Source: Psammoneis japonica (Eukaryota). Taken from it: a stretch of DNA of 64,000 bases. How positions within the stretch are numbered: the stretch's first letter is position 1; each line of letters starts with the position of its first letter. The stretch is taken from the NCBI GenBank assembly GCA_008632985.1, contig QPGO01000098.1, positions 124,001 to 188,000 of the forward strand. Direction: 5' to 3'. The notes under the pieces were generated by a model that ran no database searches, was not told the DNA's origin, and worked only from the letters and a program-made list of their open reading frames with translations. Shown piece after piece: positions 8,115-64,000 of the stretch. The translations under genes were made by a program, and so were the position numbers.

Positions 8115-8141
8115 CTCCCTCATGCCAAAATGTCTGAGTTG

Positions 8142-29131: not shown

Positions 29132-29348
29132 AGTCCTGCAACGCAGAAAGTTGAAAGTGTTGCTCTTCCGCCTTCGCATTCGCACATGTCTAGCTAGCAC
29201 CGGCATCTGCGACGAATCTTCACAATAAAAGGATTGATGATGTGAATCGATCATTGACCAAGCTACGGACAGATCCCGTGAAAACATACTGCAGTATTAA
29301 AGCTACAGATATTAATATCTTGTGTAGGACTCTCTATGAATCCTTCTA

Positions 29349-29666
29349 CTACAAATTGCAAAACAATTGCGCGATACACGTGCCCGAAGGTCGAATATCG
29401 TTGCCCGAAGCAACATTCTTCCTTCGCGCAGATGTCCATTCTACATAGTATATGGTATTGAAAATCTCATTGTAGTCGCATGAGTCGTTGCAGTAATTTC
29501 ATCAATGACCTCTGTGGTACTGTGCTACGTGATCTACACAAATCGGACATTCTCGAATGCTGGTATATTTTCTACGGACTCTACGTGCGCGAAGCTCGAA
29601 TTTCGTGCCCGAAGCAACAATCACCCTTCGGGCACGTGTATCGCGCAATTGTTCAGCATTTCGTAG
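29349..29666. mobile_element. Tc1/mariner-type MITE, TpA-intact copy
   Basis: TIRs CTAC..AACAATTGCGCGATACACGTGCCCGAAGG / CCTTCGGGCACGTGTATCGCGCAATTGTT..GTAG, with TA on both sides (29347-48, 29667-68). Confidence 0.88.
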
Positions 29667-30059
29667 TACTTCAAGGTGTTCATAAATAAAATGGGCACCA
29701 AAGGCCGGCTCTCACTCGTCCCACTCAGCGGCGGGGCGGCGGGCACCGCGAGAACGTCGCAAGGCCCTGGGCACTGCACTGATTTACTTGTTGCGACAGG
29801 TCGAATGTACATCGACAAAAGAGAAGCAAGTGACATGCACGACAAATTGTGCATGTGTGAAGCATTTCACATTTATCAACTGTCACACTCACTGCATGTG
29901 CAGTTTCCTGATGTCCCCAGACAATCCGGGGCACACAGAGGCTTCAGGGCTGTTGGCCACTCCCTTGCAAGGGACGTTGGCCACATGATTCTGCATCAGA
30001 GTTGCAGTGGTTTTGGAAACAACCAGCAATTGGTGGAGCCTGCTGTTGGACGATTTTTG

Positions 30060-38219: not shown

Positions 38220-39260
38220 AGAGTTGAATGACAGGTGTGCCAAAATCAGTCATCAAGACCCAAATGATCCAGAAAGATGTGGTGTGCAGTTGCTCAGCAA
38301 AGAGCTGCATCTTGAGAAGAAGAAAATGAGTGTCAAATGTCAAAATCTGTTTGAAGCCCCCTGCGCTCCCGTGGAACGTAAAGCCTCACTGGCAATGTCC
38401 AGTGACAAAATGCAGAACTTCTTCAGTGACCTTTGTAGATGTGCATTGGACATGAATGTCAATCAATCGGAAACGTGGTCCAGCCTGGGGCATTTGTTTG
38501 GAAAATGTGCTTTGGTCACCTGGATGCCGCCAGCTTGTGGTCGTTCCTCACAATCTGGATGGAAGCAGTCGCTGGAACTTGCGCACTGCCTCCTTGACTT
38601 TGGGGGTTGTTTTGTTCAACTTGATGAATGCCATTTGTCTGAAGGAAATGGACATGGGAGCTGGACGGGAATGGAAGCTTTTGTTTGTCAGAAAGGAATG
38701 ACCATGATCATTGAAGGCAGCAAGCAATCACATGACAAGGAGAAAGGATTGCAAGTCTTTCTCTGGAGAAAAGTGAAGCCCGGGTGTGATCGGATGGAGG
38801 TTTGTGACAAGATTGCTGAGAAACCAAAGGAAGAAATTGACATTGAGGAAATTTTGAGAGAAATGAAGTCCTTGGGGAAGAGCTGATAAATGATCCATGG
38901 ATGTTCCCACGTTGTCTCGTTTCACTTGTAGTTGACTGCAACCAGTGCTGCAACGCACAATGGAGACAAGTGTTTTTGGCACCAATGAAAGACAACTGAA
39001 TTTACACAAACGATCACCTTCATGCAATGTGTCTGGCATTGTCCACATGTCATCTGTAGAAAAAGATCTTTGCTGAGGTCTTGCCAAAACTGCCACAATT
39101 AAATGCCAATTGCCCCCTTGGAAGCCCTGAGCTGCTGAGACGTTGCCTGCACCACTGGATCCCACAACAACAATGGACAATCCCAAGGGACTTGATGGAG
39201 TGCTGAGTCCTCAGTTTGCCAGCCAGTTTTTGTATGAAACAAGTGGAGCACAAAGCAGAT
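38220..39260 (+). repeat. Duplicated decayed gene segment, copy 1
   Basis: Colinear with ~41918-43100 (e.g. GTCATCAAGACCCAAA..GTGGTGTGCAGTTG..CAGCAAAGAGC). Includes ORF 38206-38886. Confidence 0.7.
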
Positions 39261-41900: not shown

Positions 41901-41907
41901 NNNNNNN
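41901..41907. other. Assembly gap within a C homopolymer
   Basis: Seven N. Confidence 0.99.
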
Positions 41908-41917
41908 CCCCCAAGAA

Positions 41918-43100
41918 AAGTTGAGTGACAGCTGTGCCAAAATTTGTCATCAAGACCCAAACAATGATCCAGAACAATGTGGTGTGCAGTTGTTCAGCAA
42001 AGAGCAGCATCTCTGGAAAAACAATGAGTGTCAAATGTCAAAATCTGTTTGCAGCCCCCACCACTCCCACACAGAGTGCAAAAAGCCCCACGGGCAATGT
42101 CCAACCATGAAGTGTGGGACCTCTTCAATGAGCTTCGTGTGCTTGCGGCACTGAATGTGGATGTCAGCTGATTGGCAAAGCAATTCAGCCTTGGACACTC
42201 ATTTGGAGAACATGCATTGGTGACCTGGACACCACCAAATTGCAGTCATTCCTCACAATCTGGTTTGGAGCAGTTGCCTGAACTCATGCACCACCTCCTT
42301 GCTGGGGTTGTTTTGCTCAACTTGACAAGTGCCATTTGTTTGAAGGAAATGGGCATGGGAGTGCAATGGCAATTGAAGCTCATGTTCATCAGAAAGGGAT
42401 GACCATGATCATCAAATCCCACAATGAATTGCATGACCAGGAGAAAGGATTGGCCACCTTCCCTTGGAAAAAAAGTGTCACGCAGCTGTTGTTGGATGGC
42501 TGCTTGTGGCAAGATGGCCAAGAAAATGCTGGGAGAAAGCAGCAAATGATCCTTGGGGGAGAGTGGCCAGCTGATCCATGATGGATGTTCTCATGTCTTT
42601 CCTTTTTGCTTGGAGTTGACCACAGCCAGTGCTGCAAACCAGCACAATGGAGGCTGGCATTTTTGTGCCATCAAAAGGCTGCAGAATTAACCTGCAAACT
42701 GATTGCCTCCTTGCTGGCACATGCAATGCATCTCTCTCCACCAGCCAGTGAGGGCCCTCTGCCAGAGTTGTTCCTTGCACATGCACGATTGCACAATCAG
42801 TGCATTTCATGCCTGTGAAATGGGTGAGCATGTGACAACAGATGACTTGCGAACCTCTGGCACATGTTGTCCACATGCAACAGATGAAAAAAGGACATTT
42901 GTGGAGGTCCAGCCAAAACTGCTCATAACAAAGTTTCAATCGCCCCCTTGGCAGCCCAGGCAGCTCTTGAGATGTCACCTGTGTTGTTGGGCTCCCATTG
43001 CAGCAGCTGTGGACAACAAGAGACTCCATGGTGGACTTTGCGGAGTGCCCCAGCTTGCTGTCCAGTTTTTCCATGAAGCTCTTGGAGCACAAAGAAGCAC
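41918..43100 (+). repeat. Duplicated decayed gene segment, copy 2
   Basis: Colinear with ~38220-39260, more diverged. Confidence 0.7.
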
Positions 43101-46100
43101 ACACACAGCACCAACAACAAACAGAAGCAGAGACAAGGTTTTTTGCAATGAACCCGGTGTCAAGTTTCATTTTTGTGCCCGGACTTTTCTTTCGGAAACA
43201 CAAACATCAACCCCATTTTTGTCAACATTGTTGACTGGTTGAATTTTGGCTGCTTGTTTTGACTCAAAAAGAGGTGCAGTGCATGCTGCAGTGCGGCTGT
43301 GCTGTGACAAAGAAGTTGGGTTTCAGCAGGCAGAATGGGGCAGGTGCAGATGGGAAACCATCAAAACTGCTGCTCTCCTCCTCTGTGGGGCATCACCTGG
43401 ACCAACAGCCTTTCTGTGTGAGTGATGAAGATGACAGTGTCAAAAAAAAGCCAGATGGACAATGAATCAAAAGAGCAGCACAGCCAGATCATGACAGAGC
43501 AAATGGTGAGTTGAGCAGCTGTGTGCAAAGTGTGGGGCCCACCCCCAATCATCAAACTCAGTTGCTGTCTCTTTGCAATCAAGCAACAAAAGAAAATTCT
43601 TTGTTGGCACAAGAAGATGATGGCAGCTCAGATCCATGTAAGTGCAAAGTGGGTGCTTGTTTCATTGAGTCCTTTGCAACTTTGTGCAGCCACCTGCTCA
43701 TCTCAGCCCTTGTTTGTGAAGGGATGTGATGGTGGAAAAATGATTTGACAGGTGTCACAAAATCTTGTTCTCCAGCCCCGCCACATGCTGGTGGGTTGAC
43801 AGTTAAAAAGAACTTGCAAAACAATGGACTCCCCTTGTCAAAAAGCCTTTTTTGTCAGGGATGACATGGAGTCATTTGTTGTGCTCTGTGGTGTCTGCAA
43901 ATTGCTCCATTCACTCCATGAGTGGTCTTGCTGCTGAAACCCAGCCTTTTGTCATGGCTTTTTTCTCCAAGACAGCATCTTCACATGGTTGCCACATGTG
44001 CACTCTGGGCTTGACTCCCTCTCACAGCATTCTTGGTGGGGTTTGCTGCAGCAGCTGGTGCTGGCCCACTCCCCCCATCTCTTTTTTGGCTTTGATGCCC
44101 CACCTTGGTTTGCCCCCTTCTCCTTCAGACTTGGGTTGCCCCAAAATGCAAGAGTGCCTTTGTTTTTGTTGAGGACATCTTGGCCAGGTCAAATGTTGGA
44201 TCACCCTTTGACATGTGTGCATTTTTGCACAATCCCAGCAGAGATGACTTGAGCTTGGCAGTTCTTTCAATTCTTGTCCACCAACATTGGTTGCAAACCC
44301 AAGTGCCACCCCCAAAATGAAGTGTTCAGAGCAACAGCACACTTGCACAAACTCAACACCAGCCACAGATGACTTTTCTGGACCTGGCACTTTGGGCATG
44401 CCGCCCTCACTTGGCTGATGCCATCAATTGCCAACTCAGTGATGCAGGAAAAACAGGATGCACTTGGGCATGTCTTTTGCAGGACCTGGCTCCAGCCCTG
44501 CCATTTTGAAGAACAACTCTTGCAAAGCATGAGCCCAAGTCTCAGCAGTTTCTGTTGTTGTGCCCACTCAGTGTTTGCAAGGCAGCTGGCTGTTGGACAA
44601 GTTTGAGGAAAGGAACTTGGCAGGTGCAACTTCTGTGCTCTTTGTGACAGACTCCTCTGTTGCAGACAAATCAAAATGGCTGACCTTGGTGTTTCAGCAA
44701 GATTGTTTTGTGTTGTGCAATTTTCAAGGTTCTCAAGGGGAAGTTGCAACTGGCCAACTTTCAACACATGTGTGCATGTGTGCTTGCATGCAACCTTTTC
44801 TTGATGCACTTGTTTGCATTTTTGACATGTGTTGCCATTTGTGGCGATGCGCATGTTTTGCATTTGTTGGAGTGTCAACACCCACCCACTTGTTTGCCAC
44901 AACTCAACAGGGCTCTGTGAGAAAGTGATGATGGCGTGCTGGCAATGACATGGCATGCCTGCAGCACTGAGAACAAGGAAAGTCAGAGAGAAGTTCCTGC
45001 AGCATTTGAGTGCAGCTCTTTTGGCCATGCCCCATCACTCTGAATGGCACCTGCAATTGTGCCCCACAGAAGTGGCACAGTTGCCATCCAAGAATGCTGG
45101 GTTAGAGACTTTTGCATTGACCAAAAAGACACACCGCAAAATGTTTGACAGCTTGAGAATCTTTGCCTCCTGCCTCCATTGTTGCAAAGGTTGCCATTGT
45201 CAAGAACAAAAGAAGCAAGCAATGGCACAACAAGAAGAGTTTCACAAAAGTGGTCTCCTTCCTCTTCTCTCATTTGGAGTGGTTCTGTGTTGAAGCTGCC
45301 AGGTCTTGGTCCAATTTGCATCAGCTTTGGCAATCTTGCTGACCAACAGGTTGTGCTGCTGGCCTTGAATTTTGAAGTTGTTGGGCTGGAAGCATCAGAT
45401 GAGAAGCACTTGTCTTGGCCAGAGGATGACTCAAGGCAAGTGAGAAAGCAAGCAATGGACAGCTCTGATGGTGACAAGTCTCCAAATGGTGTGGCAATGT
45501 TGATGAAGAAGTGGACTCCAATCCAGCCCGCACTTGTGCTGGTGGCTTTTTGGATGGCAGTGTGGGTGTCCATTGGGAAAGTGGGGTGCAGATTCTTTTG
45601 TCACGAGTCAGCTTTTGACAATCCACATGCAGATGAAGAAGCACCCAATGTGACCTCATCTGAAAAGCACTTTTTGCTTTCATGTGATTGAACTGAATGA
45701 TCAAGTGAGGCTCCCAGGCTGTGTTGTCTCTGTCATCCAGAAATGATTCCCACAACCATGTGGTGTGTGCATCTGGCAGCAGGCACAAAACAAGCAAACT
45801 TTTCAACTGCCTGATTGCTTGACATTCCAGTTGCCAGAGAGCACATTGTCTTCTGTCCAACCATCCCATTGCCCTTCTTCCTTGGTTGCATCACTTGGGC
45901 ACATGTTTTTCCATGGTTTTTCTGGACATTTTGGCTTGGGTGGCATCTGGCAGTGCAGAGGCACAAAGCACCAACAACTCCCATCAACTGTCCAACTGCC
46001 AAACACTCCACAACTGTGTTGCCTCACATTTAAAATGCTTGCCACTGCATTGGTTGCAGGGCCTTTTTGGTGCATTGCTGTGTTTCCCATTTGTTCTGCT

Positions 46101-46199
46101 GTCATCATTGAGTGGCACTTTGTCAGGTTTGTGTCTCTTTGGATCCTGGGTGTCCTTTGAGAAGTTGCACAAGTTACATCAGCTCTCTTCTTTGACACT

Positions 46200-48050
46200 G
46201 TCTAGAACTTGTCAGTTTTGTCAACTTGGACCCCACAGTGTCTTTGTCCTTCTCACCAAACATTGTTTTCTGATGGGCCTTTTGAACCATCAAGTCACTG
46301 CATTCCAAACTGTGTGGGCCAGTGTCATGCAGAGTCCTGCCTGGGGCCAGAGCTCATCTGCAGGTTGTTTGTCATCTGCAGTGTGAAAGAAGAGTGGCAT
46401 TTTGGTGCTTGCAAACCTGGGTGGTGGTGCTTCTCAATTACAGTGCTTGTGATTGCTGTCCAATCTGTCATTTTGATGGCCTTCAGGAGAGCCAAACTGG
46501 GAAATGACTCCCCCAGGCAAGCACGCTGCAAGCTCTGTCTTTTGTGGGTCTCATGCATTTTTGTGGACCTTCAACATGTTTGTTTTGGGTGTTGCAATCA
46601 TTTGTTGAGCTGTTCCCAATGTTCCCTCAACCATGACTGTGATGGACCTGGTGGCAACCTCCTCACACCTTTCTCCTTCTGTTTTGTTGTTTGCATTCCA
46701 GAAACCATCATGCCTTTTTGTCCACCCATGAATGCACAACAACATTTCCAACAGCTGGGTGCCCAGTTGTCTGTGGCAAGATGTTCTGTGCATCATTGTG
46801 CTCTGTCTGCATTTGCCAGACAACCTTGCACAACCTCAGCAACTGTGCTGCCAACAACTGGTTCTTGGCAATGCACAACTTCTTGCAACAATTCTCTGGC
46901 AGATCCATGAACTGACTCTTGCTGCCAATCCCCATCTGCAATGTGGTGGAAACATGCAGAACAATTTGCAAACAATGTGCTCCACTGCTTGCAGGCAGCT
47001 GTGGTTGGTCACACACTGATTGTGACCTCAGCACAAGTGCAACTCAATGACAAGGCATTTGTGAAAAACCTCAAGAATCTTCTCAACCAACCCCCGTTGA
47101 AGGTGCGCACATCACAAAGTCGTCTCCAATGGGGTGAGTGCAAAAAAAAAAGCATCAGAGCTCTCATGGCCTTTGTCATCCCCAACAAAGTGCAATGAAC
47201 CACAGGCTCCCATGTTTCTGGAATCAACCGATGGTGTTTGTGATGTGTGGGCTCTCTTGTGAGATTTCTTGCCAGGGCAGTCTCACATGCTTGCGATGAG
47301 GACAACTGACTTGGCTGCAGCCACACACTTTGCATCATTGTGCAAGTGTGTCTGAGCCAAGCCCATCCAAGCAGCAAAGCAGCAGAGGAGCACAGCAACA
47401 TTTTTTAATGCACTGATGCTGCAAACACCAGCTGTCATTCTGGCACCACAATGAACCTGATGCGCGGACTTCTTCCTCCAAATTTCCACAAGCTGCTTTT
47501 GGGCAGCTCCATTGCTGGTTTTGCCAGCCAAGGCTTTCATGATGGCACTGCCCAATTGTGCCATTTCCAAAGACAACAGGTGAACTGTGACAGCTGAGGT
47601 TGCACAACAAAGATTGAACCATGCCTCTGCTGGATTGTTCCTTGGTGCTTGCTTCAAGCAAGACAAAGTGCCCATCATGGGCTCACAAGCAAACCTCCTG
47701 TCTGTGTTGCTCATGTTTTGTCCACTTGAAAAGGGTCCCCAACACAAATTTTTCCTTGTCATTCAACCCAAGCAGACTCTGTGCACTTCTCTTGGAAGAT
47801 GAGACAGCCCTGCAACTCCATTGCTTGCTTCCCACCAGCCTTTTGTGCAAATCCCAGATTGCCATGTTGGCTGATTGCAAGTCCAGTGCAGCGCAACATC
47901 CACCCACTCCATGCCAATGCAAACAGTGCTGGGTGGTGGCAGGCAAAACATGTCCTCCTGAAGACACTTGACAAAGGCATCATGGCACAATGAAAGAAAC
48001 ACAAAAGATCAAGTGGGGGTCATTGTGGGCATCTCAGGCCCAACCAAGGA
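46200..48050 (-). mobile_element. Possible 3' portion of a non-LTR retrotransposon, highly decayed
   Basis: Weak fragments only (AGVCSI, THLHND, WLREHWEQLN) reminiscent of RNase H-like and WxxRN C-terminal motifs. No RT core seen. Confidence 0.25.
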
Positions 48051-50333: not shown

Positions 50334-51011
50334 TTGTTGTCGCAACTCACTTCTGCCATGGGCTGCTGGAACTTTTCGTTTTGGGACAACGACGAGTGTG
50401 TCGAGTTTCTTCTGGTGCTCTTTCAGCACCTTGGCCTGTCAACCATCCTGCGCAAGGAAGATGTCGGCAAGGGCGCGCGCCACTGCACAGTGGCAATGGT
50501 CGTTCCTCCCAATCAATCGGGCAAACCTTTGATTGTCCGTCACGACGGTGAGGAGTTGGAAGAGACACACCATCTGCACCACTCCGTCACAGCTGGTGAC
50601 CTTGAAAGCACCAAGCGGAAGATCCTCTCTTTGAGGAACGCCTTCTTGCCGACTTGGCGAGTCACGAGAAGCATCTCAAGAAGCTCAGGCTCAAGGCTGA
50701 GCATCTCTGACTCTCATCCACATGCATGTTGGATTGCTGTGGATGTGGTCAAGCTCGACGAGTTGGCTCAAGTCTTTGACATGCGCGGCAATGAGGGAAC
50801 ACATTCGATTGATGGGCACCTCAAGAACTGCACGGGGGCGACGGATGCGAACCTCGAACAGCTTCGCAACGAGCAGGCTCCCGCGATTCGTGCCGGCATT
50901 CTAGCGTGCAAGAGCATGATCTTGTCCAACGACACGCTCGAATCCATGTCCTTGGCACATTGGTCCTCGGCAGTCCATGGAGATGTGGATGAGTGGTGTG
51001 CTCCCTCATGA
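50334..51011 (+). pseudogene. Unknown protein relic, TpA-mutated
   Basis: 225-codon frame with protein-like composition and no Tyr. No family recognised. Confidence 0.35.
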
Positions 51012-52453
51012 ATTGAAGCCTGAAGATGTCTGGTGCGGAACTCCGCAGCTGGCCGTTTTCAAGGTTGATGGCAAGTCAATGTGATGCACAACACGACATC
51101 ACGATGCTCATCTCGGTGGTTGGTGCACACACTAACAACAAAGCTTTTGTTTCAGGAACCGGTGACAACTCTGATGATTCGGCATCTGAATCGTCCAACT
51201 GGGGCGTGCGACAGCCTGCTGAGTCTGGTCTCATGTGTGCATGTGGTGTGATGGGTGTGGAGGTGTCTCTCACCTTGCTCTTTGCAGCTGGCACCACTGC
51301 TGCCACTCATGTTGAGCACGTACGATACGAATGGAGTTTCAATCGCTGTCGTTTGTTTCTAGCTGTGATGGCAAAGCATGCCTAAACATGATAGAAATCG
51401 TCTCTCATTCAACTTCCGCATGCATTTTTTCTCTCTTGGCATCCATCGTTGTACTCTCTTTGCTTCTTTCCTCTTTTTTTGCCCCACTTTGCGGTCCTTT
51501 CGTCATTTCGTTCTTTTCGGACTTTTGAGTTCGAGTCGTCATCTGCGCTTGCCAAATCCTGGTCAGCGCCACGTCCTCTGACTGATTCCACGATTTTGCC
51601 CGTGTTTATGGATAAAATTGGAAAGGAGGGGGGCAAGTAGCTAGTGAAGTGTATTTGGTTGACGAGATGATAGAGAACTTCCAAAAACGCGTCCACAGGC
51701 GACAAGACAATGAGTGAAGGTCGCCAATGCGACACGATCGAAGAGAGAACGATACCTTAGCTACTCTCTATAGCTAGAAAGAGTCGATCCACTCTCTAGA
51801 GTGACTGCTGCTCTCCAGCCACCACTCCACTCTACTGCAGAGCATTTCACAGTATCCCATCTGCTGGGGACAAGCCCCTGACGCAGTGGCAAAGCGATGG
51901 AAGAAGGACCAAAAAGTCAAGAACGATGCGACAACTGAAACTGAAAACGCAGCTTGTTACATTCAGTGCCACAGTCAGGAACAAACCATTGAAAGCTCCG
52001 ACAGTCATGGAATTGCTAGATTGTTTTGCTCCTGCGAGAATGAAACCTGTGACGTGTCCCCCCCAGACTCTGCTCTAACATGGCAACCTTCTGCTTTGTC
52101 CATTTGGTGCATTTTACCAACAGAGAGAGGCATTTTGCTCAACCTTGCCAACTTTGACGGGGGCTCTAATGATCCCTCAAAAGGCTTTGTGCTCTAGGAT
52201 GCCAGTGGAATGGGAAAGGTGGCGCTTTGCCAGTCTGTGAGGTGCAAAGCTGCAGTTTCTGCTAACACACAACCAAGCGACAATGGACACCCAACATTGG
52301 TTTAGGTTGGTTCCACATGTGGAACAACTGATGTGAACACTGTCAAACAAAAGTTGCAGATGCCAACACTCGCACCCACCAGCACCACTTGTGACGTGCT
52401 GAGATGACTCCAAGGCTCTACAACACAAACAAGTGCATTCTCAGAGATGATTC

Positions 52454-53359
52454 TCAAGAATGAAGACGCTTCAACAAGTGACGCGCCAATGAATGGACAG
52501 CATCATTTTTCCCTTCGCATTTAAGCTCGGCTGCGGCGGCTGCAACGCCTCCACCCTTTTTCGTGATTTCTGCCTTGGCTTGTTCACTGCAAAAGGACAG
52601 ATCAAGGAGGAAAACAAGTGCCTCTTCCTGGACATCTTCATCTTCAATGTGATTGTCCATGGCCGCAATCATGGGATCCACAGCGACCAACAGCTCAGCG
52701 GAAGAGGTTGGGAGTTCACATTGGGTGTCGTTAAGACAACTGATGGCGCACCCAAGCAAGACATGTGCAGCTCCATGGTTTCTGATGGCAGCCGCAATGA
52801 CGCCAATGCACCCGGCATCAAAAATTTTCTTTGCATCTTTGATTGCGAGATTAAAAAGAGCAGTGCAGCCACGTTCCTGCAACTTTCCTTTCTTCAGAAA
52901 CTGCTTCATTGCGTGCACAATGGCATCAGAAGCATCAGCCGCAATGAATTTCCTGCTGAATTGGCAACCATCTCAATCCCCACTGGTGCAGACACAAATG
53001 AGTCTGCATGCTTTTGATTTGATGTCACACGACTCTGCCGTGTTCAATGCATGCACAAGATTTTTGCAAATGTCAGTGCCTTTGAACTCTGCAAGGATGT
53101 CGTCACAGGGCTCAAAGACATCATGGATCTCTTCTTCGTCTTGTTTCAGAAGAACAAGAGTGCAATCAATGGTTTTTTCCACGCTGCTTTTGTCGAGCAG
53201 CTTTTCCACCATGGCGACTTTTGTTCATGGTGGTTCAATGACAGAATCATCATCATCATCCTCCTCCTCGCTTTCACCAACAACGCGATGACGTGCGTGT
53301 GGCGGTGCCTCCTCCTCATCTGTGGCATCCACAGTGGCTCTCTTCTTCGAACTTGACAT
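52454..53359 (-). pseudogene. Armadillo/HEAT-like repeat protein pseudogene
   Basis: IVHAMKQF..LQERGCTALFNLA..IFDAGCIGVIAAAIRNH and AAMDNHIEDEDVQEEAL. In-frame TGA at 52973. No Tyr. Confidence 0.65.
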
Positions 53360-54185
53360 GCTGCTGCCACGATTGACTCTCTAAAGAATGGTTTGATTGT
53401 GCAATGATTGCACCCGGCACCAGTCGATCAATGTCAACAATGGCCAATGCTCTCATGCAGCAACAATGACAGCGGACAGCAGACAGTGGGCGCGATCACA
53501 CAAGCGAATTTGGGAATCATCGGCGACTGTGATTCACGCACTTTGATTTGTCCGACTCGATCGACGACTTCGAAAGGCAACGACGCGACGCACGACACGA
53601 CGCAATGACGCAACGCAACAAAGCATGATGCGATAGAAGATGGTCTCTGCCCACTAGAGACCTGCTCTCTAGAGAGCAGCTAGCTCTTGATGGAGGTCCG
53701 TCAACTTTGTGCTAAGAGCAACAAAGTGTCAATGGGGAACAATGCGAGATGAGTGAAGCCCGTAAGTCGGCCAGCTGCCGACTGCCGACAATTTAGCCAC
53801 CAGGTTCTCATGCCAAGGTCTGGCAGCAGCCATTCTCAAATTCTACCGGCAGAGGCTCCAGGCAGTGCGCGGTTTAAAAAAGAGCTTCCTCCCAGTCTGC
53901 TCATGTTCTGTTGGCCTCAACGATGGCAGTTTGAATTCGATCATCATGAATCATGACATTGATTTTTATTGGTTGTAATTTCCATGTGGCACTAGCCTCT
54001 CAATGTGTGCACAACAAAAACAAATCATACAGGCAAGTAAACAGCGACCAATTTTAACCATGACGCACTGTCGGCTTGCTCGAAAACATGCACAATGACG
54101 TCACACGCGCGCGACCTGTCATGCCTCATTTTCTCCTTTGTGGTGTGTGGGTCTCTTCTTGGTGTCCTCTACCTCATCATCACTT

Positions 54186-57100
54186 TTAAAGAAGACAGCC
54201 CACAGCAACAGTCACAACACCAAGAGCAACATTTCCTGCCAAACTGGAAATGGCATTCATGCATGCAGTGCTTGGTTGCCCGACAATCTTGCCACAATGC
54301 CACTCCCAACAGCTGGATTGGCATGACAAGAGATTGCAAATCACCAAAGTTCTCTTCCAAGGCCCATTCTGAGACTGTTGAACCGCCCCCTCGTCTGGTG
54401 TGGCCTCACTTCCATCAAAGAGAGCTCTTCCATTGTAGAGTCGGGCGCCAGAACTGTCCGTGCCGGTCATCATGAGCTCGACATCCTGGAGATTGGAAAA
54501 GTTGTCACCCATTTGATCCTTGAGAAAGGCTTCGGCAGTTTTGGTCAACTCCTCCTCACTGTCGACCGTGCCGTCCACCAGCAAACCAAACTCAGCAAGC
54601 ACCCTTCGTCCAAATCACCCTCCATGGCGACATCCCTCAACATGACGCCACTTCCAATGGCTGGATTTGCATCAATGAGCGCCTGAAGACCCGCTTGATC
54701 ATCTTTCAACGCCTTGCGTTGTGACTCGAGGACGACTGCCTCAGTCGGGACGTTCTCCGTTCCTTCCAGAATGGCTTTGCCACTGTGCTGGCACGCTCCA
54801 GAATCATCAGTGCCGGTCATCATCAGCTCGACGTCTCTGAGATTGGAAAAGTCCTTGCCCATTTCTTCCTTCAAGAATGCCGCGGTGGTTGACGTCAACT
54901 CTTCCTCACTGTTGACTGTGCCTTCCAAAAGCAAACCAAAGTCGGCAAGAGCAACCTCAGACGTTTCCACATCGTCCTCAAAGGCAAAGCCCTGCAACGT
55001 CAGATTGCTTCCGACAGCAGAATTTGCGTTAATGAGCTCTTGTAAACTGGCTTGGTTGTCTTTGAGAGCCTTCCTTTGAGATTCGAGCACTTCTGTCTGT
55101 GGCAGTGCAGGGACGGCTCCGTCGAAGATGGCCTTTCCACTGCATTGACGCGTGCCCGAATCATCGGTGCCTGTCATCATCAGATCAACACCTTCGAGAC
55201 TGGGCAGGTCTTTGCTCATTTCTTGCATCAAGAATGCGGCAGCAGTTGAAGTCAACTCCTCCTCGCTGATGACATCACCATCCAACTGCATCGCAAAGTC
55301 AGCAAGATCAATCTCGACGCCCTTGATCGCAGCGCCCGTCACCGTGATGCCGCTTCCGATTGCAGAATTGGCAGCGATGCTCTCCTGCAATCCAGATGCA
55401 TCTTCCAAAGCTCTGCTCTGGGAGCCGAGGACATCTGCTTTGGCTGGAGGAACAACGGATCATCAAAAGCAGCCTTTGCACTGCATTGACGTGCGCCAGC
55501 CTCGTCGGCACCTGTCATCATGAGCTCGACATCTTCGAGGCTCGAAAAGTCAGCGCCCATCTTGTCCTGCAAGAACGCAGCAGCAGCAGAGGCTGGCTCT
55601 TCCTCACTGTCGACTTCGCCGTCCAATTGCAGGGCAAACTCAGCAAGATCAATCTCAACACCCTTGATGCCTGCATCTTGGACCGCAATGCCACTTCCGA
55701 CAGCAGCATCAGCAGCAATGCTCTCCTGCGACCCAGATGCATCAGCCAACGCTCTGTTCTGAGAGTCGAGGACTTCCGATTCCGTTGGTGGGGTTGCAGA
55801 TCCCTCGAACAGAGCCTTTCCGCTGCATTGACGGGCACCAGAATCATCGGTGCCCATGCTCATGAGATCAATGTCCTGGAGGGTTGAAAAGTCAGCACCC
55901 ATCTTTTCCTTCAAAAACGCCGCGGCAGTGGAAGTCAACTCCTCTTCACTCTCAACATTGCCGTCCAATTGCAATGCAAAGTCGCAGAGCGATTTCAACA
56001 GGCGGTTTGTCTCCTTCCAGGGCTGCACCCTCTACCGCAACACCATCTCCAATGGCAGAATTGGCCTCAATCGCAGCCTGCAATCTGGCCATATCTTCTG
56101 AAGCTTTCCTTTGAGATTCGAGAAGGACAGTGTCCATCGGCACAGAAGCTGATCCTTCAAACAGAGCCTTTCCGCTGCATTGACGGGCACCAGAATCATC
56201 GGTGCCCATGCTCATGAGCTCGATGTCCTGGAGGGTTGAAAAGTCAGCAACCATCTTTTCTTTCAGAAATGCCGCGGCAGTGGAAGTCAACTCATCCTCA
56301 CTGTCAACATTGCCATCCAATTGCATTGTAAAGTTGGCGAGAGCGAGTTCAACAGGCAGTTCGTCTCCTTCAAGAGATGCACCCTCTACCACAATGCCAT
56401 CCCCAACAGCAGAATTGGCATCAATGGCTGCTTGCAGTCCGGCTTCGTCTTGTGGAGCGTTCCTCTGAGACTCGAGGACTTCGCCTTCCGCAGGAGCAGC
56501 ATCGGATCCGGCAAAAACAGCTTTTCCGCTGTGCTCTTGTGCACCAGAATCGTCCATTCCGGTCGTCGTCAACTGAACATCGTCGAGGTTTGAAAAGTCA
56601 GCGCCCATCTTTTCTTTCAAGAACTCTGCGGTGGTGGAAGTCAGCTCGTCTTCGCTGTCGACATCCCCATCAAGCTGCAGGGCAAAGTCAGTGAGCGCAA
56701 CTTCAACCGGAGCTTCCTCTCCTTCAAGGGCGATGCCCTCTACCGCAACACCATCTCCAATCGCAGAATTGCCGTCAATGGCTTCCTGTGACCCAGATTC
56801 GTCTTGCAGAGCATTCCTCTGAGACTCAAGGACTTCAGCTTCCGCAGGGGCAGCATCGGATCCAGCAAAAACTGCGTTTCCGCCGTACAATCGTGCACCA
56901 GAGTCGTCCGTTCCGGTCGAAGTCAACTCAACATCTTCGAGGTTCGAAAAGTCCGCGCCCATCTTTTCTTTCAAGAACTCAGCGGTGGTGTTGGTCAACT
57001 CCTCTTTGCTGTCGACCTCGCCATCAAGCTGCAGGGCAAAGTTAGACAGAGCAACTTCAACCGGAGGTTCGTCTCCCTCAAGGGCTCACCCTCTACAGCA

Positions 57101-60100
57101 ATGCCATCTCCAATGGCAGAATTGGCATCGATGGCTGCTTGCAATCCAGCTTCGTCGTCCAGTGCATTCCTCTGAGACTCGAGGACTTCATCTTCCCAGG
57201 AGCAGCATCAGATCCAGCAAAAAAGGCTTTTCCGCTGCACTCGCGTGCACCAGAATCGTCCGTTCCGGTCGTCGTCAACTCAATGTCCTCGAGGTTCGAA
57301 AAGTCAGCGCCCATCTTTTCCTTCAAAAACGCCGCAGCAGTGGAAGCCAACTCCTCTTCACTGTCGACCTCGCCTCCAAGCTGGAGAGCAAAGTCAGACA
57401 GAGCAACTTCGACCGTAGTTTCGTCTCCCTCAAGGGCGACACCCTCTACCGCAATTCCATCTCCAATCGCCAAATTGGCGTCAATGGCTTCCTGTGAACC
57501 AGATTCGTCTTGTGGGGCGTTCCTCTGAGACTCGAGGACTTTGGCTTCCGTAGGAGCAGCATCGGATCCAGCAAAAACAGCTTTCCCGCTGCATTCACGT
57601 GCACCAGAATCGTTCGTTCCAGTCGTCATCAACTCAACATCCTCGAGGTTCGAAAAGTCAGCACGGTGGTGTTGGTCAACTCCTCTTCGCTGCCGACATC
57701 GCCATCAAGCTTCAGGGAAAAGTTGGCGAGAGCAACTTCAACAGTGGGTTCGTCTCCCTCAAGGGCGACACCCTCTACAGCAATGCCATCTCCAATCGAC
57801 GAATTGGCATCAATGGCTTCCTGCAAACCAGATTCGTCTTGTGGGGCGTTCCTCTGAGACTCGAGGACTTCGGCTTCCATGGGAGCAGCATCAGATCCGG
57901 CAAAAATGGCTTTTCCGCTGCACTCTCATGCACCAGAATCGTCTGTTCCGGTCGTCGTCAACTCAACATCGTCGAGGTTTGAAAAGTCAGCGCCCATCTT
58001 TTCTTTCAAGAACTCTGCAGTGGTGGAGGTCAACTCATCCTCCCTGTCAACATCGCCGTCAAGCTGCAGGGAAAAGTTGGCGAGAGCAACTTCAACAGGA
58101 GGTTCGTCTCCCTCAAGGGCAACACCCTCTACAGCAATGCCATCTCCAATCGCCGAATTGGCGTCAATGGCTTCCTGCAAACCAGATTCGTCTTGTGGGG
58201 CGTTCCTCTGAGACTCGAGGACTTCGGCTTCCGCAGGAGCAGCATCGGATCCAGCAAAAACAGCTTTTCCGTTGTGCTCTCGTGCACCAGAAATCGTCCG
58301 TTCCGGTCGCCGTCAACTCAACATTGTCGAGGTTTGAAAAGTCAGCACCCATCTTTTCTTTCAAGAACTCTGCGGTGGTGGAGGTCAACTCATCCTCACT
58401 GTCAACATTGCCGTCAAGCCGCAGGGAAAAGTCGGCGAGTGCAACTTCAACCGGAGGTTCGTCTCCCTCAAGGGTGACACCCTCTACCGTGATGCCATCT
58501 CCAATCGCCGAATTGGCGTCAATGGCTTCCTGTGACCCAGACTCATCTTGTGGAGCATTCCTCTGAGACTCCACGACTTTGTCTTCCGTAGGAGCAGCAT
58601 CGGATCCGGCAAAAATGGCTTTTCCGCTGTGCTCTCATGCACCAGAGTCGTCCGTTCCGGTCGCAGTCAACTCAACATTCTCGAGGTTCGAAAAGTCAGC
58701 GCCCATCTTTTCTTTCAAGAAGTCTGCGGTGGTGGAGGTCAACTCCTCTTCGCTGTTGACATCGCCGTCAAGCTGCAGGGCAAAGTTTGCAAGATCAACT
58801 TCAACCAGAGGTTCGTCTCCCTCAAGGGCTGCACCCTCCACCGCAATGCCATCTCCAATCGCCGAATTGCCAACAATGGCTTCCTGCAACCCAGATTCGT
58901 CTTGTAGAGCGTTCCTCTGAGACTCGAGGACTTCGTCTTCTGTGGGGCAGCATTGGATCCAGCAAAAATTGCTTGTCCGCTGCAGCCACGTGCACCAGAA
59001 TCGTCCGTTCCGGTCGTCGTCAACTCAACATCATCGAGGTTTGAAAAGTCAGCGCCCATCTTTTCTTTCAAGAACTCGGCGGTGGTGGAAGTCAACTCCT
59101 CTTTGCTGTTGACATCGCCGTCAAGCTGCAGGGCAAAGTCAGTGAGCGCAACTTCAACCGGAGGTTCGTCTCCTTCAAGGGCGACACCCTCTGCCGCAAC
59201 TCCATTTCCAATGGCAGAATTTTCGTCAATCGCTGCTTGCAGCCCGGCTTTGTCTTGCAGAGCGGCCCTCTGAGACTTGAGGACTTCATCTTCCGCAGGA
59301 TCAGCATCGGATCCGGCAAAAACAGCTTTTCTGCTGCGCTCACGTGCACCAGAATCATCCGTTCCGGTCACCGTCAACTCAACATCCTGGAGGTTCAAAA
59401 AGTCAGCACTCATCTTTTCCCTCAAAAAATCAGCCGTGGTTGAAGTCAACTCATCTTCACTGTCGACAGTGCCTCCAAGTTGAAGGGCAAAATTTGCCAA
59501 ATCAATTTCAGCGGCAGGAGGCGCAGCAGTTGGAGCCGACGCAGGAGCGTTGGCAGCATCTTGAGAGACACAACAATCCACTCTCGTGGGGTCAGCACCA
59601 GAGCATCCTGGGAACTGCATGGCGAGAACCAACACAATGACAAAAGTGAGAAAGGCAGAGGGGTGTTGGCAGAGGTGATTGGGCTGACACACGACATGAC
59701 GCGCCAGATCTGCACACACACCACTTTTGAGTCTCCGGGATTCTGGCGAATGCGTTGAAGGCCGTTGAGGCAATCGTCATCTGTGTCGCAGTCACCTGTG
59801 AAAGGAGAGCAAAAGGAGTTGGCATGCGTCAGCACTCAGAACTTCACAGAGGTTTTCGCCAGAGCGAGTGGCCTTGCGACTGCGGATGACAGACGCGTTC
59901 CAGCCCTGGTTGGGACTCCGTGTGACATTGGGCCCGTAGAATTCTGTGTGCGAGCTCCGCAGTGCGAGAATTTAATTGATGGATGTGTTTGTCTTCAACA
60001 TCAAATAAATGGCCAAGTTTGTGGTGCAATTATGCCTCTTGCCACTCGACGTTTTTGCAAATGCACCTGCCCTGCGCGATTCTTAAGACATCAAAGAATC

Positions 60101-60514
60101 GCGCTGCAACAAAAAAATGTCAAAAGTTGTTGGACGGATCGCTCAACAAGTGCACCATAAAATGACACAAAATGTCAAAAAAATCACGTAGAAATCTACG
60201 TGCGCGACATACGACATGATTCAAAAAACTGTCGATGTCACAGTTCAGCAGTGCGAGGTCCCACCCAGACCTGGAGCGCGTCGACAACCACATGTTTTAA
60301 GATGCCACACCTTGACAAAGACCACACCGATCGGTGGGATCACATTCTCGACCAAGATGATCGAGGGGAGGAGGCGGCGCAGGGGCTGGGGTCTCGTCAT
60401 TCTTCAATTGTCGACGGGCCAAGCTGGGTTGAACTCCACGCAGCCGCTCAGCCTTGGTGAAAACAGCAAGCTCAAAAGCACTGTCAGGAGAGAAATCCTG
60501 GAAGAGCGAGCCAT
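54186..60514 (-). pseudogene. Secreted frustulin-domain protein with ~15 acidic ~118-aa tandem repeats and a hydrophobic C-terminus; frameshifted and TpA-mutated
   Basis: Exon 1 (60514-60311) has a signal-like MARSSRISLLTVLLSL, a frameshift, then ..CDPTDRCGLCQ. It splices to GDCDTDDDCLNGLQ (from 59795) and FPGCSGADPTRVDCC, which together match the frustulin acidic cysteine-rich motif. A Pro/Ala linker, the repeats and a terminal ALGVVTVAVGCLL follow. Confidence 0.75.
54250..59510 (-). repeat. Coding tandem array, ~354-bp unit, ~15 copies
   Basis: GAGACTCGAGGACT-like anchor recurs at ~54720, 55078, 56113, 56468, 56821, 57174, 57527, 57856, 58210, 58565, 58920 and 59273. One unit has a short deletion near 57660. 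Confidence 0.92.
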
Positions 60515-61224
60515 GATCTTATAGCACACGAAGAACTCTCGGGCTTATGGGGTATACGGTACACTCTGTTGTGTCGACTTCGAGACGGTGCGTACGCACT
60601 GTAGTGTCTTTCGCTGCTCTTTCACTTGAAAAAGTTGTGAAAAGAACGCGTTGACACTCTCGAAGATCCGGCACTGGACAAGATTTTGGCACGACCCATT
60701 ATGTATATCTAACGATATATATACATCTAATCGTAAACTGTTCGTAGAGAGCGAGTATCAAATTGTCCAAAATTGTATACAAATCCTGTTTTGTTTAAAT
60801 TGTCTATCGCGATTTTAGGACTATTTTTTATATTATAATTAATGGACTTTAATATATCCGAAAAGGCTGTAGTGCTTATCTAATACAAGCATTTAGCTCT
60901 GGATGTGTAATTTGACGTTGTCGACGTCGCTGGTGGCGCATGCGACAACAGCAACATACTAAGTACATAACAAACATACTGTACGGTACACTGTAACATA
61001 CCGGGCGGTAGGGCCCTACTAACATACGCATGCTGACAACCCGAAGCCGTCCCTACCTCCTCTCCCGGCCCGCCCAGTCGGACGAAGCACGACTCTACCA
61101 AAAGCACTCCGTCACGACTCAATCAAGAATTAGTCAAAATTGAAAAAATTCCAGTTGGGAGTGTGAAAATTCGGCCTGTCATGATATTACAGTGCTTTGT
61201 TCACTGCCAAAGCATAGATCAAGA

Positions 61225-62109
61225 ATGAGCCAAGAAAATGGTCTTCTGTATCGTAGCACTATTCAGATGTATGATGCTGTTCGTAGTGGGAGCATAGATA
61301 GAGTTCGAAACCTTGTCCAAGCTGGACATGACGTGAACGCTTCAATTGGATGGTGCGACGACTTCAAAGAATTTCCAATAATTTATGCTACCTGCGGCGA
61401 ATGGTTCTGCCCCGACGAAATGGTCGAGGTCCTCCTGGAAAATGGGGCTAATGTCAATCAACGTACGGGATTTCGTGAGACGCCACTACATTATTGTATA
61501 GGTCTTAGAAAAGCACAAACCCTTGTGTCGCATGGGGCTGATGTGAATGCTCAAGACTTCCGGAATGCCACCCCTCTACACAGAGCTGCCGCACACGGAG
61601 CCGTTGAAGTAGCAGAATTATTGATTCAGAATGGCGCGCATTTGAACGCAGCGGACAGACAAGGGATGACCCCGCTACATTGGGCCATATGCTTCCACGG
61701 CGAAATTCATGATAACAGCATGGAAAACATGGTACTACTGCTGATGCAACAAGGCGCTGATTTGAATGCTGCTGATAAAAGCGGGCGCATTCCACTTCAC
61801 CGTGCAATAGCAAAAGACTATGAATCCATTGTGCTGCTTTTGATGAAAGATCACGCGCGACAGCTTGTGGTTGCGGACAACGCTCATCCGTGTGTCTGGG
61901 CCCATGCTTTAGGTACTATCGGACGCAAGGCCGAATCGGAGAGGCTAGGATTGATGCTTTCCCTGATCCAAGAAAAGCCTGATCTCTTTAAAATGGAACC
62001 AAAATCCATGGATTGCAAAGTTACATTAGGTGCGGTAGATAACGTCACTTGCGGGGTCTTGGAACTCCTCGGGTTGAATGCCTTACCTCTCACGCACGCT
62101 CATAAGTAG
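61225..62109 (+). CDS. Ankyrin repeat protein
   Basis: GANVN..ETPLH, GADVNAQD..ATPLHRAA, GMTPLHWA, GRIPLHRA. Uninterrupted ORF with normal TA content. Confidence 0.9.
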   Translation: MSQENGLLYRSTIQMYDAVRSGSIDRVRNLVQAGHDVNASIGWCDDFKEFPIIYATCGEWFCPDEMVEVLLENGANVNQRTGFRETPLHYCIGLRKAQTLVSHGADVNAQDFRNATPLHRAAAHGAVEVAELLIQNGAHLNAADRQGMTPLHWAICFHGEIHDNSMENMVLLLMQQGADLNAADKSGRIPLHRAIAKDYESIVLLLMKDHARQLVVADNAHPCVWAHALGTIGRKAESERLGLMLSLIQEKPDLFKMEPKSMDCKVTLGAVDNVTCGVLELLGLNALPLTHAHK

Positions 62110-62246
62110 CTGGATCACATTGATAACTCTACTTCTGGTAGCTAGAGAGCGAGAGTGTGTGCGTGTGTCAAAAGGAAGCGGGCAGTACATATGTAGAAGC
62201 AAAAGGGAGTAAATACACCTAGCTGCACTATCTCAAGGCCATTCAG

Positions 62247-64000
62247 TTAGTAGTACAAGCTTTGGTTCGCCTGCTGCCACGCATTCATGCGACGAGTCGT
62301 GGCTGCCGTCGTCGCCGGCTTCTTTCTGTCATCTGCAACCGTATTTGCATTCAAGTACACCCAGCAGTTCCGACACAGCAGATCAAAAGCCAGAGCTAAA
62401 ACACCCGCTGTCTTGCTTGCTGGATAGAGCAGAAACACGAGAAAATAAACATGAGTGCACTCGTGAGCAAGTGAGTCATTTCACGGTGACAGGAGAATGG
62501 TAATACTTACATTCGACAATTTCAAGAAAAATTAATCGGCTTTCCGGGGAGTTCCACAGGCACTGTGATTGTTTCACTAACGACTCCAGTTCTATGTCAA
62601 AACGAGCATTAAGGTCACTGAGCAACTCCTTGGCAGGTCGAGAAGACCCCTCTGTCGACCCTTCAACTGCAGAGAAAGCCCCAGTCAACTCGAAGAACGC
62701 CCCTTCCAGAGTGATCAGCCCATTCCGGACGGTGGTGATATCAAAACAGAAGTCTTTCATTGTCGTAATCCACACGTTCCTTGCCCCGCTCTTGCCACCC
62801 CAGTTGTTGTCGAAAGTTCGATTCTTGATGCGAGTGTATAGCTCTTGTTCCCGCTTTATCATCAGTCGAGCCAATGCCATTGGTGAATAAGACTGAGCTG
62901 CATCCACTGCACGGCCACAGAACCGTCCTAGCGAGTTGCGGTATGCAAGAAAAGCTCCGTCGTCCTCCTTGTATCCCGCAAGTTCCCGTTTCCACTTCAT
63001 TGCGCGACATAAACTCTCAACCAGCTCTATCCCGTTTATAAGGAAGTCTTCCCCGCTGTCGTACAGCACGCGCCACATTGGCACTGGCTCGGAAGGAGTT
63101 TCAGGTCGGTCGGCTGGGGATTCTCGATCATCTTTCTCGTCATCATCCTCGATCTCTATGTGCATCTTCCACCCAACAACGGTTGCCATTATGTAGCTTG
63201 CCAACACTGGTACCTTGTTTGGGTCCAAAATCTCACGTACGCGCACCCTTTTCCCAATCGCGGAAGCAACTCCCTCCAGCAAACTGTGATCAACAACAGG
63301 GGACGGAGGTACAGCAGCTTTTGCAGCTTTTAAGACTTCCTCATCCCCGGTTGTGTGGAACTCCTCCGTGGCCTCGTCGTTGCCTTCTCCCTTCTCATTG
63401 CTTGCAGCTAGACCGCTGTCCTCAAGAGTAGTCTTCAAATTCGTTCGAAGCTCATTCTCTCGTATACCTCTTTTATCCAGGTGCTTCATCATTGCCCGAA
63501 ATGATGTCTCCGTGATATGACCACCCCAAAAACGTTTCGCCAATGCAAGAATCGAACCGGATGAGTGATACTCCTGGCAGTTGAAACGCACGAGCTTCTC
63601 AATTGAGTCGCTCCGCCGGTCTGCGTCACTTTCTATCAACTCATCAGTCTTATCCTCCTCGCATATGCGTATGGCTGTTACATCATGTCGCAGATTAACG
63701 TAATCCGGGCTTGTCAGTGTCCCCTCGGCTTGATCATCGCCATCCTTCAAAATGTAATCGGCTTCAGCCCACACGCGCCCAGTCAAATCACCGCTGAAGT
63801 GCCAAAAACGATTTCGAAAGCGATCTCTCCCCAGCGGTTCTGTGCGTATGAAGCACTTGTTACGCTTCGCCACAAGATCTTTCTGTGCGTCGATTACGCG
63901 TTTCCGGCTCTCTGCCGTTTTTAGCTCCAGCGCAGCATCACGTAGCAAGTCAAGCGCCCACAATCCATCAGTTTCGGGATTAGGACCCGTCAACTTGGCT
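62247..64000 (-). CDS. 3' part of a WHIM/DDT-family (BAZ/WSTF-like) chromatin protein; intron 62510-62420; 5' end outside window
   Basis: EPLGRDRFRNRFWHF (WHIM2-like) and LDKRGIRENELR (WHIM3-like). GTAAGT..CAG intron joins the last exon in frame. Confidence 0.75.

Follow-up and report, generated by a model that had tools for sequence, protein, structure and literature searches.

A tandem-repeat surface-protein gene in the diatom Psammoneis japonica lies in a TpA-depleted domain with a probable signature of DNA hypermutation

The window analyzed here is a stretch of 64,000 nucleotides from the diatom Psammoneis japonica (GenBank assembly GCA_008632985.1, contig QPGO01000098.1, positions 124,001 to 188,000 of the forward strand; coordinates below are positions within this window). 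Between about 54 and 60 kb it holds a gene that apparently encodes a type-I surface protein built from tandem domains, and in which almost all TpA dinucleotides (TA in the following; other dinucleotides are written likewise) are missing. The parts of the gene and the TA-poor domain around it are as follows.

54255 to 59509, minus strand: array of 15 units arranged in tandem, head to tail, each about 354 nt or 118 codons long and named U01 to U15; each encodes one SEA-like beta-alpha-beta-beta-alpha-beta domain
59510 to 59776, minus strand: unique N-terminal part with a signal-peptide-like hydrophobic segment and an Ala/Pro-rich linker, containing 0 TA
54186 to 54254, minus strand: C-terminal hydrophobic segment (..LAGNVALGVVTVAVGCLL) with its stop at 54186-54188, matching the place of the transmembrane helix in related proteins
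54188 to 60519, no strand: TA-poor domain of 6.3 kb around the array, with 19 TA in 54188-59936 and 1 TA in 60284-60519, split by an insertion at 59887-60283

Unit borders were set by anchoring and MAFFT alignment. The first unit, U01, occupies 59509-59156 and the last, U15, 54608-54255; from U01 to U15 the lengths are 354, 353, 354, 355, 329, 354, 352, 354, 354, 352, 342, 341, 357, 350 and 354 nt. Tandem Repeats Finder describes the more uniform part of the array (55874-59491) as 10.3 copies with a period of 354 and 82% matches. The reading frame of the gene consists of seven open reading frame (ORF) pieces, and a charged tail beyond the C-terminal hydrophobic segment lies in a different frame.

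A search of 5.8 billion proteins with a 348-residue ORF of the array gave no near-length homologue. Run against 1.84 billion representatives, a profile built from nine translated units detects 24 proteins at E <= 1e-3; the best match reaches 1.4e-35 and comprises five stretches, and one of the 24 proteins belongs to the diatom Cylindrotheca fusiformis. These relatives combine a signal peptide with a stalk rich in Ser/Thr/Pro; the domain itself is present one to seven times and is directly followed by a transmembrane helix and then by a conserved cytoplasmic tail. Pfam contains no family that covers the units, and shows no credible family in six of the relatives.

The AlphaFold model of U08, based on 19 aligned sequences, has a pLDDT (predicted local distance difference test) of 92.7 and a pTM (predicted template modeling score) of 0.87. 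Its elements follow the order beta-alpha-beta-beta-alpha-beta, with strands at residues 7-12, 40-50, 56-64 and 105-111 and helices at 18-34, 73-84 and 87-95. Foldseek gives no match to this model in the PDB at E <= 0.001. The top matches with VIA-align are PCDH15 MAD12 (Z 7.7), the SEA domain of MUC16 (1ivz, 7.4) and Gpr126 (6v55, 7.2), followed by TMPRSS6 (9nrc, 6.9) and 7sa9 (6.5); all are below Z 8, the range of common arrangements, and the predicted fold would therefore be a likeness to SEA and membrane-adjacent domains rather than membership. The likeness extends to context: such domains in mucins, adhesion G-protein-coupled receptors and protocadherin-15 are also membrane-proximal, about 115-120 residues long, ferredoxin-like in fold, part of type-I proteins and often in tandem. 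The units differ in that they have no Pfam SEA match, and no autoproteolysis-type motif is evident in them.

The ratio of non-synonymous to synonymous divergence (dN/dS) among units is 0.26 within U01-U09, 0.17 within U10-U15 and 0.20 between the two groups. With values of about 0.2, the units have diverged under purifying selection, and the gene was probably functional for most of its history, evolving under constraint. The first-pass annotation had called it a host surface-protein gene; given membrane-protein relatives of diatom type and the lack of any mobile-element domain, that is a fair description. It could be argued that the array is cargo of a mobile element or virus, in which case the process described below would still be specific to foreign DNA. 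The transposon-rich and largely unannotatable surroundings would suit such an origin, as would the lack of a close near-length homologue. Nonetheless we consider it quite improbable: the relatives are type-I membrane proteins of diatom-type eukaryotes that share the order of signal peptide, stalk, domain, membrane helix and conserved tail, Pfam shows no transposon or viral domain in or beside the gene, and the low dN/dS also speaks against cargo. Summed contig depth over the array (39-170, against approximately 57 for the ankyrin gene of the window) likewise argues against a high-copy element, though contig depth is a poor measure. An unmutated DNA orthologue was sought in metagenome contigs with the proteins of two relatives, and no locus was confirmed there.

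The deficit of TA can be expressed as the ratio of observed to expected counts (o/e). For the whole window this ratio is 0.16 for TA, 0.54 for CG, 1.61 for CA and 1.55 for TG; within the array it is 0.07 for TA and 0.82 for CG. Per kb, the TA ratio is bimodal. It amounts to 0.49-0.75 at 25001-30000, where leucine-rich-repeat (LRR) genes lie, and at 60001-64000 (the ankyrin gene and an ORF with a DDT domain), to 0.35 at 51001-52000, and to 0.00-0.20 in almost all other kb; 54 of the 64 1-kb windows are below 0.25. The six consecutive 1-kb windows from 54001 to 60000 range from 0.04 to 0.11. The TA-poor domain takes in about 0.6 kb of unique 5' flank, with 0 TA in 59510-59886, and is bordered by DNA with ratios of 0.43 (53634-54187) and 1.06 (60520-61190).

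Could the composition of the protein account for this? One might hold that the array is poor in TA through its amino acids, its codon bias or an avoidance of TA signals, without any special mutation, and indeed Asp, Glu, Gly and Ala abound in the protein and Tyr is almost absent from it. However, when the same residues were back-translated 2000 times with the codon usage of four TA-normal ORFs of the window, 159.7 +/- 10.4 TA were expected (range 123-196) against 19 observed. The non-coding 5' flank is as TA-free as the array, the neighboring host genes have TA ratios of 0.56-0.75, and the scarcity of Tyr is itself explained by changes from Tyr to Cys or His at sites where relatives retain Tyr. 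An origin in composition or selection is hardly credible on these grounds. A general drive from AT to GC, or GC-biased gene conversion, was also considered and is ruled out by the other AT-only dinucleotides, which are not depleted (AA 1.36, AT 0.87, TT 1.11). GC content amounts to 0.52-0.53 in the array, compared with 0.45-0.51 for the TA-normal DNA, and the combined ratio of CA and TG is 1.17-1.48 in the array windows and 1.6-2.0 in the transposon parts of the window. On the sense strand the ratio of TG to CA is 520:324 for the array, compared with 503:407 for host genes, but codon usage is too confounding for strand bias to be read from these counts. The TA deficit is real, local and non-compositional.

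The square formed by TA, TG, CG and CA is symmetric, and the direction of change therefore needs outside evidence. As outgroup we aligned 37 distinct domains of the relatives to the unit profile. Two codon positions illustrate the comparison.

Unit codon 58, minus strand: TAC survives at 56885-56887 (U08) and 54435-54437 (U15); states across units are TGC 8, CAC 4, TAC 2 and CGC 1 (59336-59338)
Unit codon 84, minus strand: CTA survives at 58905-58907 (U02); states across units are CTA 1, CTG 3, CCA 5, TCA 1, TTG 4 and CTC 1

All of the codons quoted in the first-pass annotation, namely both TAC, the CGC and the CTA, are found on the minus strand at these places. At codon 58 the relatives have Tyr 22 times and Phe 12 times, whereas the units have Tyr 2, Cys 8, His 4 and Arg 1. 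At codon 84, 32 of the 37 relatives carry Leu, against Leu 9, Pro 5 and Ser 1 in the units. Codon 90 (TTA 1, TTG 7, CTG 2, TCA 3, TCG 1 and CTT 1, hence Leu 11 and Ser 4) is Val in 20 and Leu in 12 of the relatives. Codon 106 is Val in 30 relatives and reads GTA in 8, GTG in 2 and GCA in 2 units. The GTA at this codon, kept in 8 of the 15 units and each time as GTAG (at 56033, 56387, 56741, 57094, 57447, 57776, 58130 and 58485), is the main TA reservoir of the array. The Tyr, Leu and Val of the relatives, set against Cys, His, Arg, Pro, Ser and Ala in the units, give the direction as TA to TG or CA. Residues apparently replaced through TA loss are thus Tyr by Cys or His, Leu by Pro or Ser, and Val by Ala. 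The CGC at codon 58, previously explained as a double hit, does not fit that description: a TpA-specific process finds no further target in TG or CA, so that CGC needs an ordinary transition.

A second line of evidence on direction comes from a repeat of which one copy was spared.

4146 to 4459, plus strand: copy of a 315-bp repeat in TA-poor DNA, with 4 TA; its partner at 29354-29667, in TA-normal DNA beside an LRR gene, has 18 TA

The copies are 86.7% alike. At 11 sites TA in the spared copy corresponds to CA (6) or TG (5) in the other, and the reverse occurs 0 times.

The differences between units were examined in two ways. A direction-free test considered all column pairs with a pyrimidine-purine (YR) dinucleotide in at least 80% of the units. 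TG and CA co-occur in 30 of the 52 YR column pairs and TA and CG in 5 of 52, while the control double transitions co-occur in 12/83 and 12/83 (RR), 9/57 and 13/57 (RY), and 6/59 and 7/59 (YY). For U01-U09 alone, TG and CA are found together in 19 of 59 pairs, against 0-5 of 59-101 in the controls. In addition, a four-state rate model (TA, TG, CA, CG) was fitted on a midpoint-rooted maximum-likelihood tree of the units. The rate of TA to TG or CA is 10.9 for 16 strict columns and 6.9 for all 52, with reverse rates of 0.47 and 0.42 and twice the log-likelihood difference (2dLL) at 15.6 and 32.0. For CG to TG or CA the rates are 1.3 and 1.4 (reverse 0.53 and 0.61; 2dLL 4.5 and 12.9), which leaves the fitted TA-loss rate at 5-8 times the CG-loss rate. 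Rates in the control families (RY, YY, RR) are between 0.15 and 0.81, and their forward-versus-reverse 2dLL does not exceed 5.4 (largest: RR 5.4, RY 3.2). Outgroup residues, the repeat pair (11:0) and the rate model together clearly indicate a direction from TA to TG or CA.

The same kind of change is seen in the transposons of the window.

7714 to 18478, minus strand: pair of Copia copies at 7714-12430 and at 13793-18478, which are 80.8% alike and keep 17 and 18 TA in 4.7 kb each

Among the 857 mismatches between these copies are 130 TG<>CA doubles and 189 changes between CG and TG or CA; two more repeat pairs of the window give the same pattern. The array gene thus carries the TA to TG/CA signature of the window's transposons, and the earlier suggestion that the mutator is not specific to transposable elements is supported. 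A sub-threshold Pfam match to Pertussis_S1 (E 0.0067) on an ORF of the Copia region is taken as chance.

Survival of TA depends on its neighbors. Survival was calculated as the TA-poor parts (1-25000, 29950-51100, 52420-53630 and 54188-59936) relative to TA-normal DNA, a rough normalization with a coding baseline. It is highest for YTAR (TTAA 0.33, CTAA/TTAG 0.25, CTAG 0.14), intermediate where one strand reads GTA (CTAC/GTAG 0.15, GTAA/TTAC 0.12) and lowest, at 0.008-0.047, where either strand reads ATA. CTAC/GTAG makes up 13 of the 19 TA remaining in the array block. This pattern suggests that the mutator prefers RTA sites, in which a purine lies two bases 5' of the adenine that it hits, and that A is favored over G there.

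Besides substitutions, the gene shows several signs of decay.

58635 to 58637, minus strand: TGA lying in frame at codon 56 of unit U03, the result of a C to T change of CpG type; in other units this codon is CGT, CGA or CGC
57926 to 57928, minus strand: in-frame TGA at unit codon 56 of U05, from CGA to TGA
57640 to 57665, minus strand: site of a 25-bp deletion in U06, next to 57665

About ten indels of 1-2 bp break the frame in the array: -1 at 58947 (U02), +1 at 58293 (U04), -1 at 57197 and 57087 (U07), -2 at 55990 (U11), -1 at 55462 (U12) and three of -1 in U15. The conserved Tyr is lost in 13 of the 15 units, and Pro or Ser stands for conserved Leu. Judged from these lesions, the gene is most likely silenced or dead now. 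The idea that the mutator may diversify surface genes finds no backing here: conserved residues are hit, and stops and frame breaks are present.

Further information comes from the only public run in which the stretch was found (X1, DNA, 2019), whose contigs were compared with the window over 51000-62000; two more runs belong to the same sample, and no RNA run was among those listed. The X1 contigs differ from the window by 306 transitions, 44 transversions and 41 indels. Among 40 of 352 differences, 31 events could be distinguished: 9 TG<>CA doubles, 2 changes between TA and TG or CA, 13 between CG and TG or CA, and 7 others; 4 of the TG<>CA doubles fall within the array. The X1 contigs partly exist in two versions of similar depth, with 0 versus 30 differences over 53162-53571 and up to 9% locally. 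The versions differ by events of both TA and CpG type, and both processes therefore went on after the versions separated. The comparison also bears on the insertion that splits the TA-poor domain.

59887 to 60283, no strand: 397-bp insertion of a very high-copy element, with a TA ratio of 0.33 between flanks of 0.00-0.08; missing from one X1 contig

Over this insertion the contig depth sums to approximately 141,000, against approximately 60 around it, and no terminal inverted repeat was seen on it. Either the insertion postdates the loss of TA or it is not subject to that loss.

How might such a domain be chosen? The first-pass annotation proposed a trigger by closely linked repeats, in analogy with RIP (repeat-induced point mutation): tandem units would be sensed as duplicated DNA, and the gene mutated for that reason. 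The units are 354 nt long and approximately 82% alike, the TA-poor block coincides with the array and short stretches beside it, which recalls the leakage of RIP into unique neighboring DNA, and the other TA-poor DNA of the window includes the duplicated Copia elements and other repeats. Against this, the unique 5' flank is depleted too, and for most of the TA-poor DNA the window contains no second copy. Repeated sequences have been spared: the 315-bp copy in its TA-normal domain keeps 18 TA where its partner in TA-poor DNA has 4, and the very high-copy insertion has retained far more TA than its flanks. Moreover, the viral target in the chlorarachniophyte Bigelowiella natans, an insert of a nucleocytoplasmic large DNA virus (NCLDV), is reported as single-copy (Mettrop et al., bioRxiv 10.64898/2026.01.13.699255). 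On balance a trigger by repeats seems unlikely for this locus, and targeting by domain or silent chromatin would be the better reading.

RIP in fungi acts before meiosis and depends on duplicated DNA; it converts C to T, mostly at CpA, and thereby creates TpA and lowers GC. It resembles the present case in that domains are saturated with transitions in one dinucleotide context, in that transposons are destroyed and duplicated host genes can be hit, and in that it can spill into flanks. The outcome is the opposite, since in the array TpA is destroyed rather than created and GC is higher. Clustered transitions of deaminase type are also a feature of ADAR hyperediting and APOBEC restriction. ADAR prefers a U 5' of the edited A, and both ADAR and APOBEC act on RNA or replication intermediates, whereas here the changes lie on both strands of a chromosomal host gene and of its non-coding flank.

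The closest known system is that of B. natans. In mutation-accumulation lines, 230 of the 231 mutations in two viral inserts, one NCLDV and one virophage, were A to G or T to C; these GC-biased changes on TpA arise in chromosomal DNA at rates near 6e-7, a de novo rate approximately 1000-fold above background (Mettrop et al., bioRxiv 10.64898/2026.01.13.699255). The same work reports 124 clusters of TpA-poor windows rich in CpA and TpG in that genome, with cut-offs at a TpA Rho of 0.43 and a CpA+TpG value of 1.52. Reverse-transcriptase and DDE domains are enriched in the TpA-poor coding sequences, host-type domains are also present, and an ADAT2-like deaminase is proposed as candidate (10.64898/2026.01.13.699255). 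The window shares with this system the A to G or T to C changes at TpA, the clustering into TpA-poor domains, the transposon-type genes among the targets and the presence of some host-type domains; the array passes the TpA cut-off with 0.04-0.11. Several differences exist as well. B. natans is a chlorarachniophyte, whereas the array comes from a diatom (stramenopile), and the depletion in the diatom window, with a TA ratio of 0.00-0.15 over 54 of its 64 kb, is far wider and goes far deeper than the Rho of 0.45 given for the NCLDV insert. The targets measured in B. natans are foreign viral inserts, whereas here a host-family gene with tandem domains is affected, as read from sequence alone. A preference for a purine at position -2, suggested by the diatom window, is not reported in the abstract, Results or Discussion of the preprint. 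Queries of the full-text literature for TpA hypermutation of chromosomal DNA, including queries directed at diatoms, returned only this preprint, whose items S6-S11 may list host repeat genes.

The explanation that we favor, with a probability of roughly 70%, combines a gene and a process. The locus would be a diatom nuclear gene for a type-I surface protein, with an N-terminal leader, 15 SEA-like domains that are each about 118 residues long and an anchor at the C-terminus, and it would lie in a domain hypermutated from TpA to TpG or CpA by the process that also struck the Copia elements, with a signature of the B. natans type. The starting points are the signature, its direction, the borders of the domain and its occurrence in a gene of a host family, all of which are seen in the data. 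Hypermutation would act at the level of DNA, turning A to G on either strand across 54188-60519, and the same process would have taken TA from the Copia elements and from most of the window. With TA at 0.07 of expectation it would be near saturation. TA loss would have continued past the duplications of the units and past the divergence of the two haplotypes or copies, while decay of CpG to TpG or CpA ran alongside; the latter would now cause the larger share of unit differences and be the source of both TGA codons. The enzyme may be an adenine deaminase that acts on DNA with a purine preferred at -2, and it would probably be guided by domain or silent chromatin, not by tandem repeats. As to the order of events, the gene may have been silenced first or may have been killed by the mutations.

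A number of observations weigh against this explanation or narrow its reach. The largest concerns CpG decay. Of the 30 column pairs in which TG and CA co-occur, 18 hold CG without TA, 4 hold both, 2 hold TA only and 6 neither, and in 11 of the 18 with CG but no TA, CG is present in at least four units; much of the pattern thus reflects CpG decay and not TA loss. The 36 pairs among U01-U09 contain 409 CpG-type events against 190 of TA type (142 TG<>CA doubles and 48 changes between TA and TG or CA), next to 2 TA<>CG changes, 440 other transitions and 737 transversions. In the closest pair, U04 and U05, the 24 mismatched positions comprise 13 CpG-type events, 3 TG<>CA doubles, 2 other transitions and 3 transversions. 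Hence a mutator acting on TA covers only part of the variation between units. Per site, TA is the fastest target but almost spent, and CpG decay now makes more of the unit differences.

Taken to its limit, this argument would reverse the direction, with CG ancestral, TG and CA as single hits and TA as the double hit, so that CpG decay alone explains the array. The CG-holding columns, the origin of both in-frame TGA from CGA and the prevalence of CpG-type differences in the youngest unit pair are all in line with it. We nevertheless regard it as very improbable. CpG decay alone would enrich TA, yet TA is nearly gone and CG remains at 0.82, the opposite of that outcome; the relatives carry Tyr, Leu or Val at the affected sites; TA stands 11 times in the spared copy of the repeat pair and 0 times in the mutated copy at the same sites; and TA is lost several times faster than CG in the rate model. 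CpG decay is genuine here, as a second process next to hypermutation at TpA, and it is partial in the array, where the forward rate from CG exceeds the reverse.

The remaining points concern the rate model, the sequence itself, the thresholds and the targeting. The root of the fitted tree holds 0-5% TA, meaning that TA poverty may be older than much of the array or that exhausted sites may be invisible to the model, which leans on a midpoint root and on a tree made from the same sites. Even X1 contigs that agree with the window in every letter differ from it by 1-3 gaps of a single base per 300-400 nt, and behind 54602 X1 carries one more T, with which U14 would be 351 nt long. The window therefore has indel errors and some frameshifts are probably errors of assembly, by which the call of a pseudogene is weakened. 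X1 is possibly the very sample behind the window assembly, and its second version is either an allele or a near-identical copy. With 1.17-1.48, the array misses the CpA+TpG cut-off of 1.52 from the B. natans preprint; the coding array has a different starting composition and has kept CpG. Finally, targeting by domain is inferred from three cases in one window.

A wider proposal goes beyond this locus: diatoms would possess a defense by adenine-directed DNA hypermutation at RTA, shared with chlorarachniophytes and possibly old in the stramenopile-alveolate-Rhizaria group (SAR), which senses linked repeats in the manner of RIP and polices, kills or diversifies tandem-repeat surface genes. We find this proposal unlikely.

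The rest of the window contains, apart from the array, ORFs of Copia type, LRR genes, an ankyrin gene and an ORF with a DDT/WSD domain. Named matches of the DDT-domain ORF are all diatoms (including Ditylum, Thalassiosira, Conticribra, Fistulifera, Amphora and Skeletonema), with 54% identity at best, and named eukaryotic matches of the LRR ORF include several diatoms (best 41% identity) besides land plants. The protein collection thus contains no close relatives of the source diatom. In 18001-25000 and 39001-48000 the TA ratio is 0.00-0.09, the CG ratio 0.02-0.18 and the combined TG and CA ratio 1.8-2.0; elsewhere, for example in 11001-14000, TA is gone while CG is at 0.8-0.9. Since some stretches have lost both and others TA only, TA loss and CpG decay are separable. 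At 52420-53630 lies a TA-poor patch of 1.2 kb between TA-normal stretches, with an ARM-like ORF on the minus strand (52457-52972; PF23744, E 6e-4, below the cut-off); the patch is possibly another host gene in decay. At 41901-41907 the sequence consists of 7 N. The window has 120 stop-to-stop ORFs of at least 130 residues, 75 of them in TA-poor DNA outside Copia and the array. In a Pfam search, 74 of these 75 had no match and one gave the weak ARM-like hit. TAA and TAG are rare in TA-poor DNA, and long spurious ORFs therefore appear in all six frames. Annotators should thus be warned that TA-poor domains lose these stop codons and give rise to long ORFs without meaning.

Summarizing, a process of this kind is already in print for B. 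natans; what is new here is the TpA signature in a diatom lineage and in a gene of a host family. The finding extends the taxonomic reach of the process to a major phytoplankton group. It also offers a compact natural test bed: direction, context preference and the relation to CpG decay can be read from the 15 paralogous units, from two versions that resemble haplotypes and from a repeat with one spared and one mutated copy. The TA-poor gene domain stands out by sharp borders against neighbors that look expressed. For the organism it means that the process can destroy host genes, with conserved Tyr, Leu and Val codons as preferred casualties because these codons contain TA.

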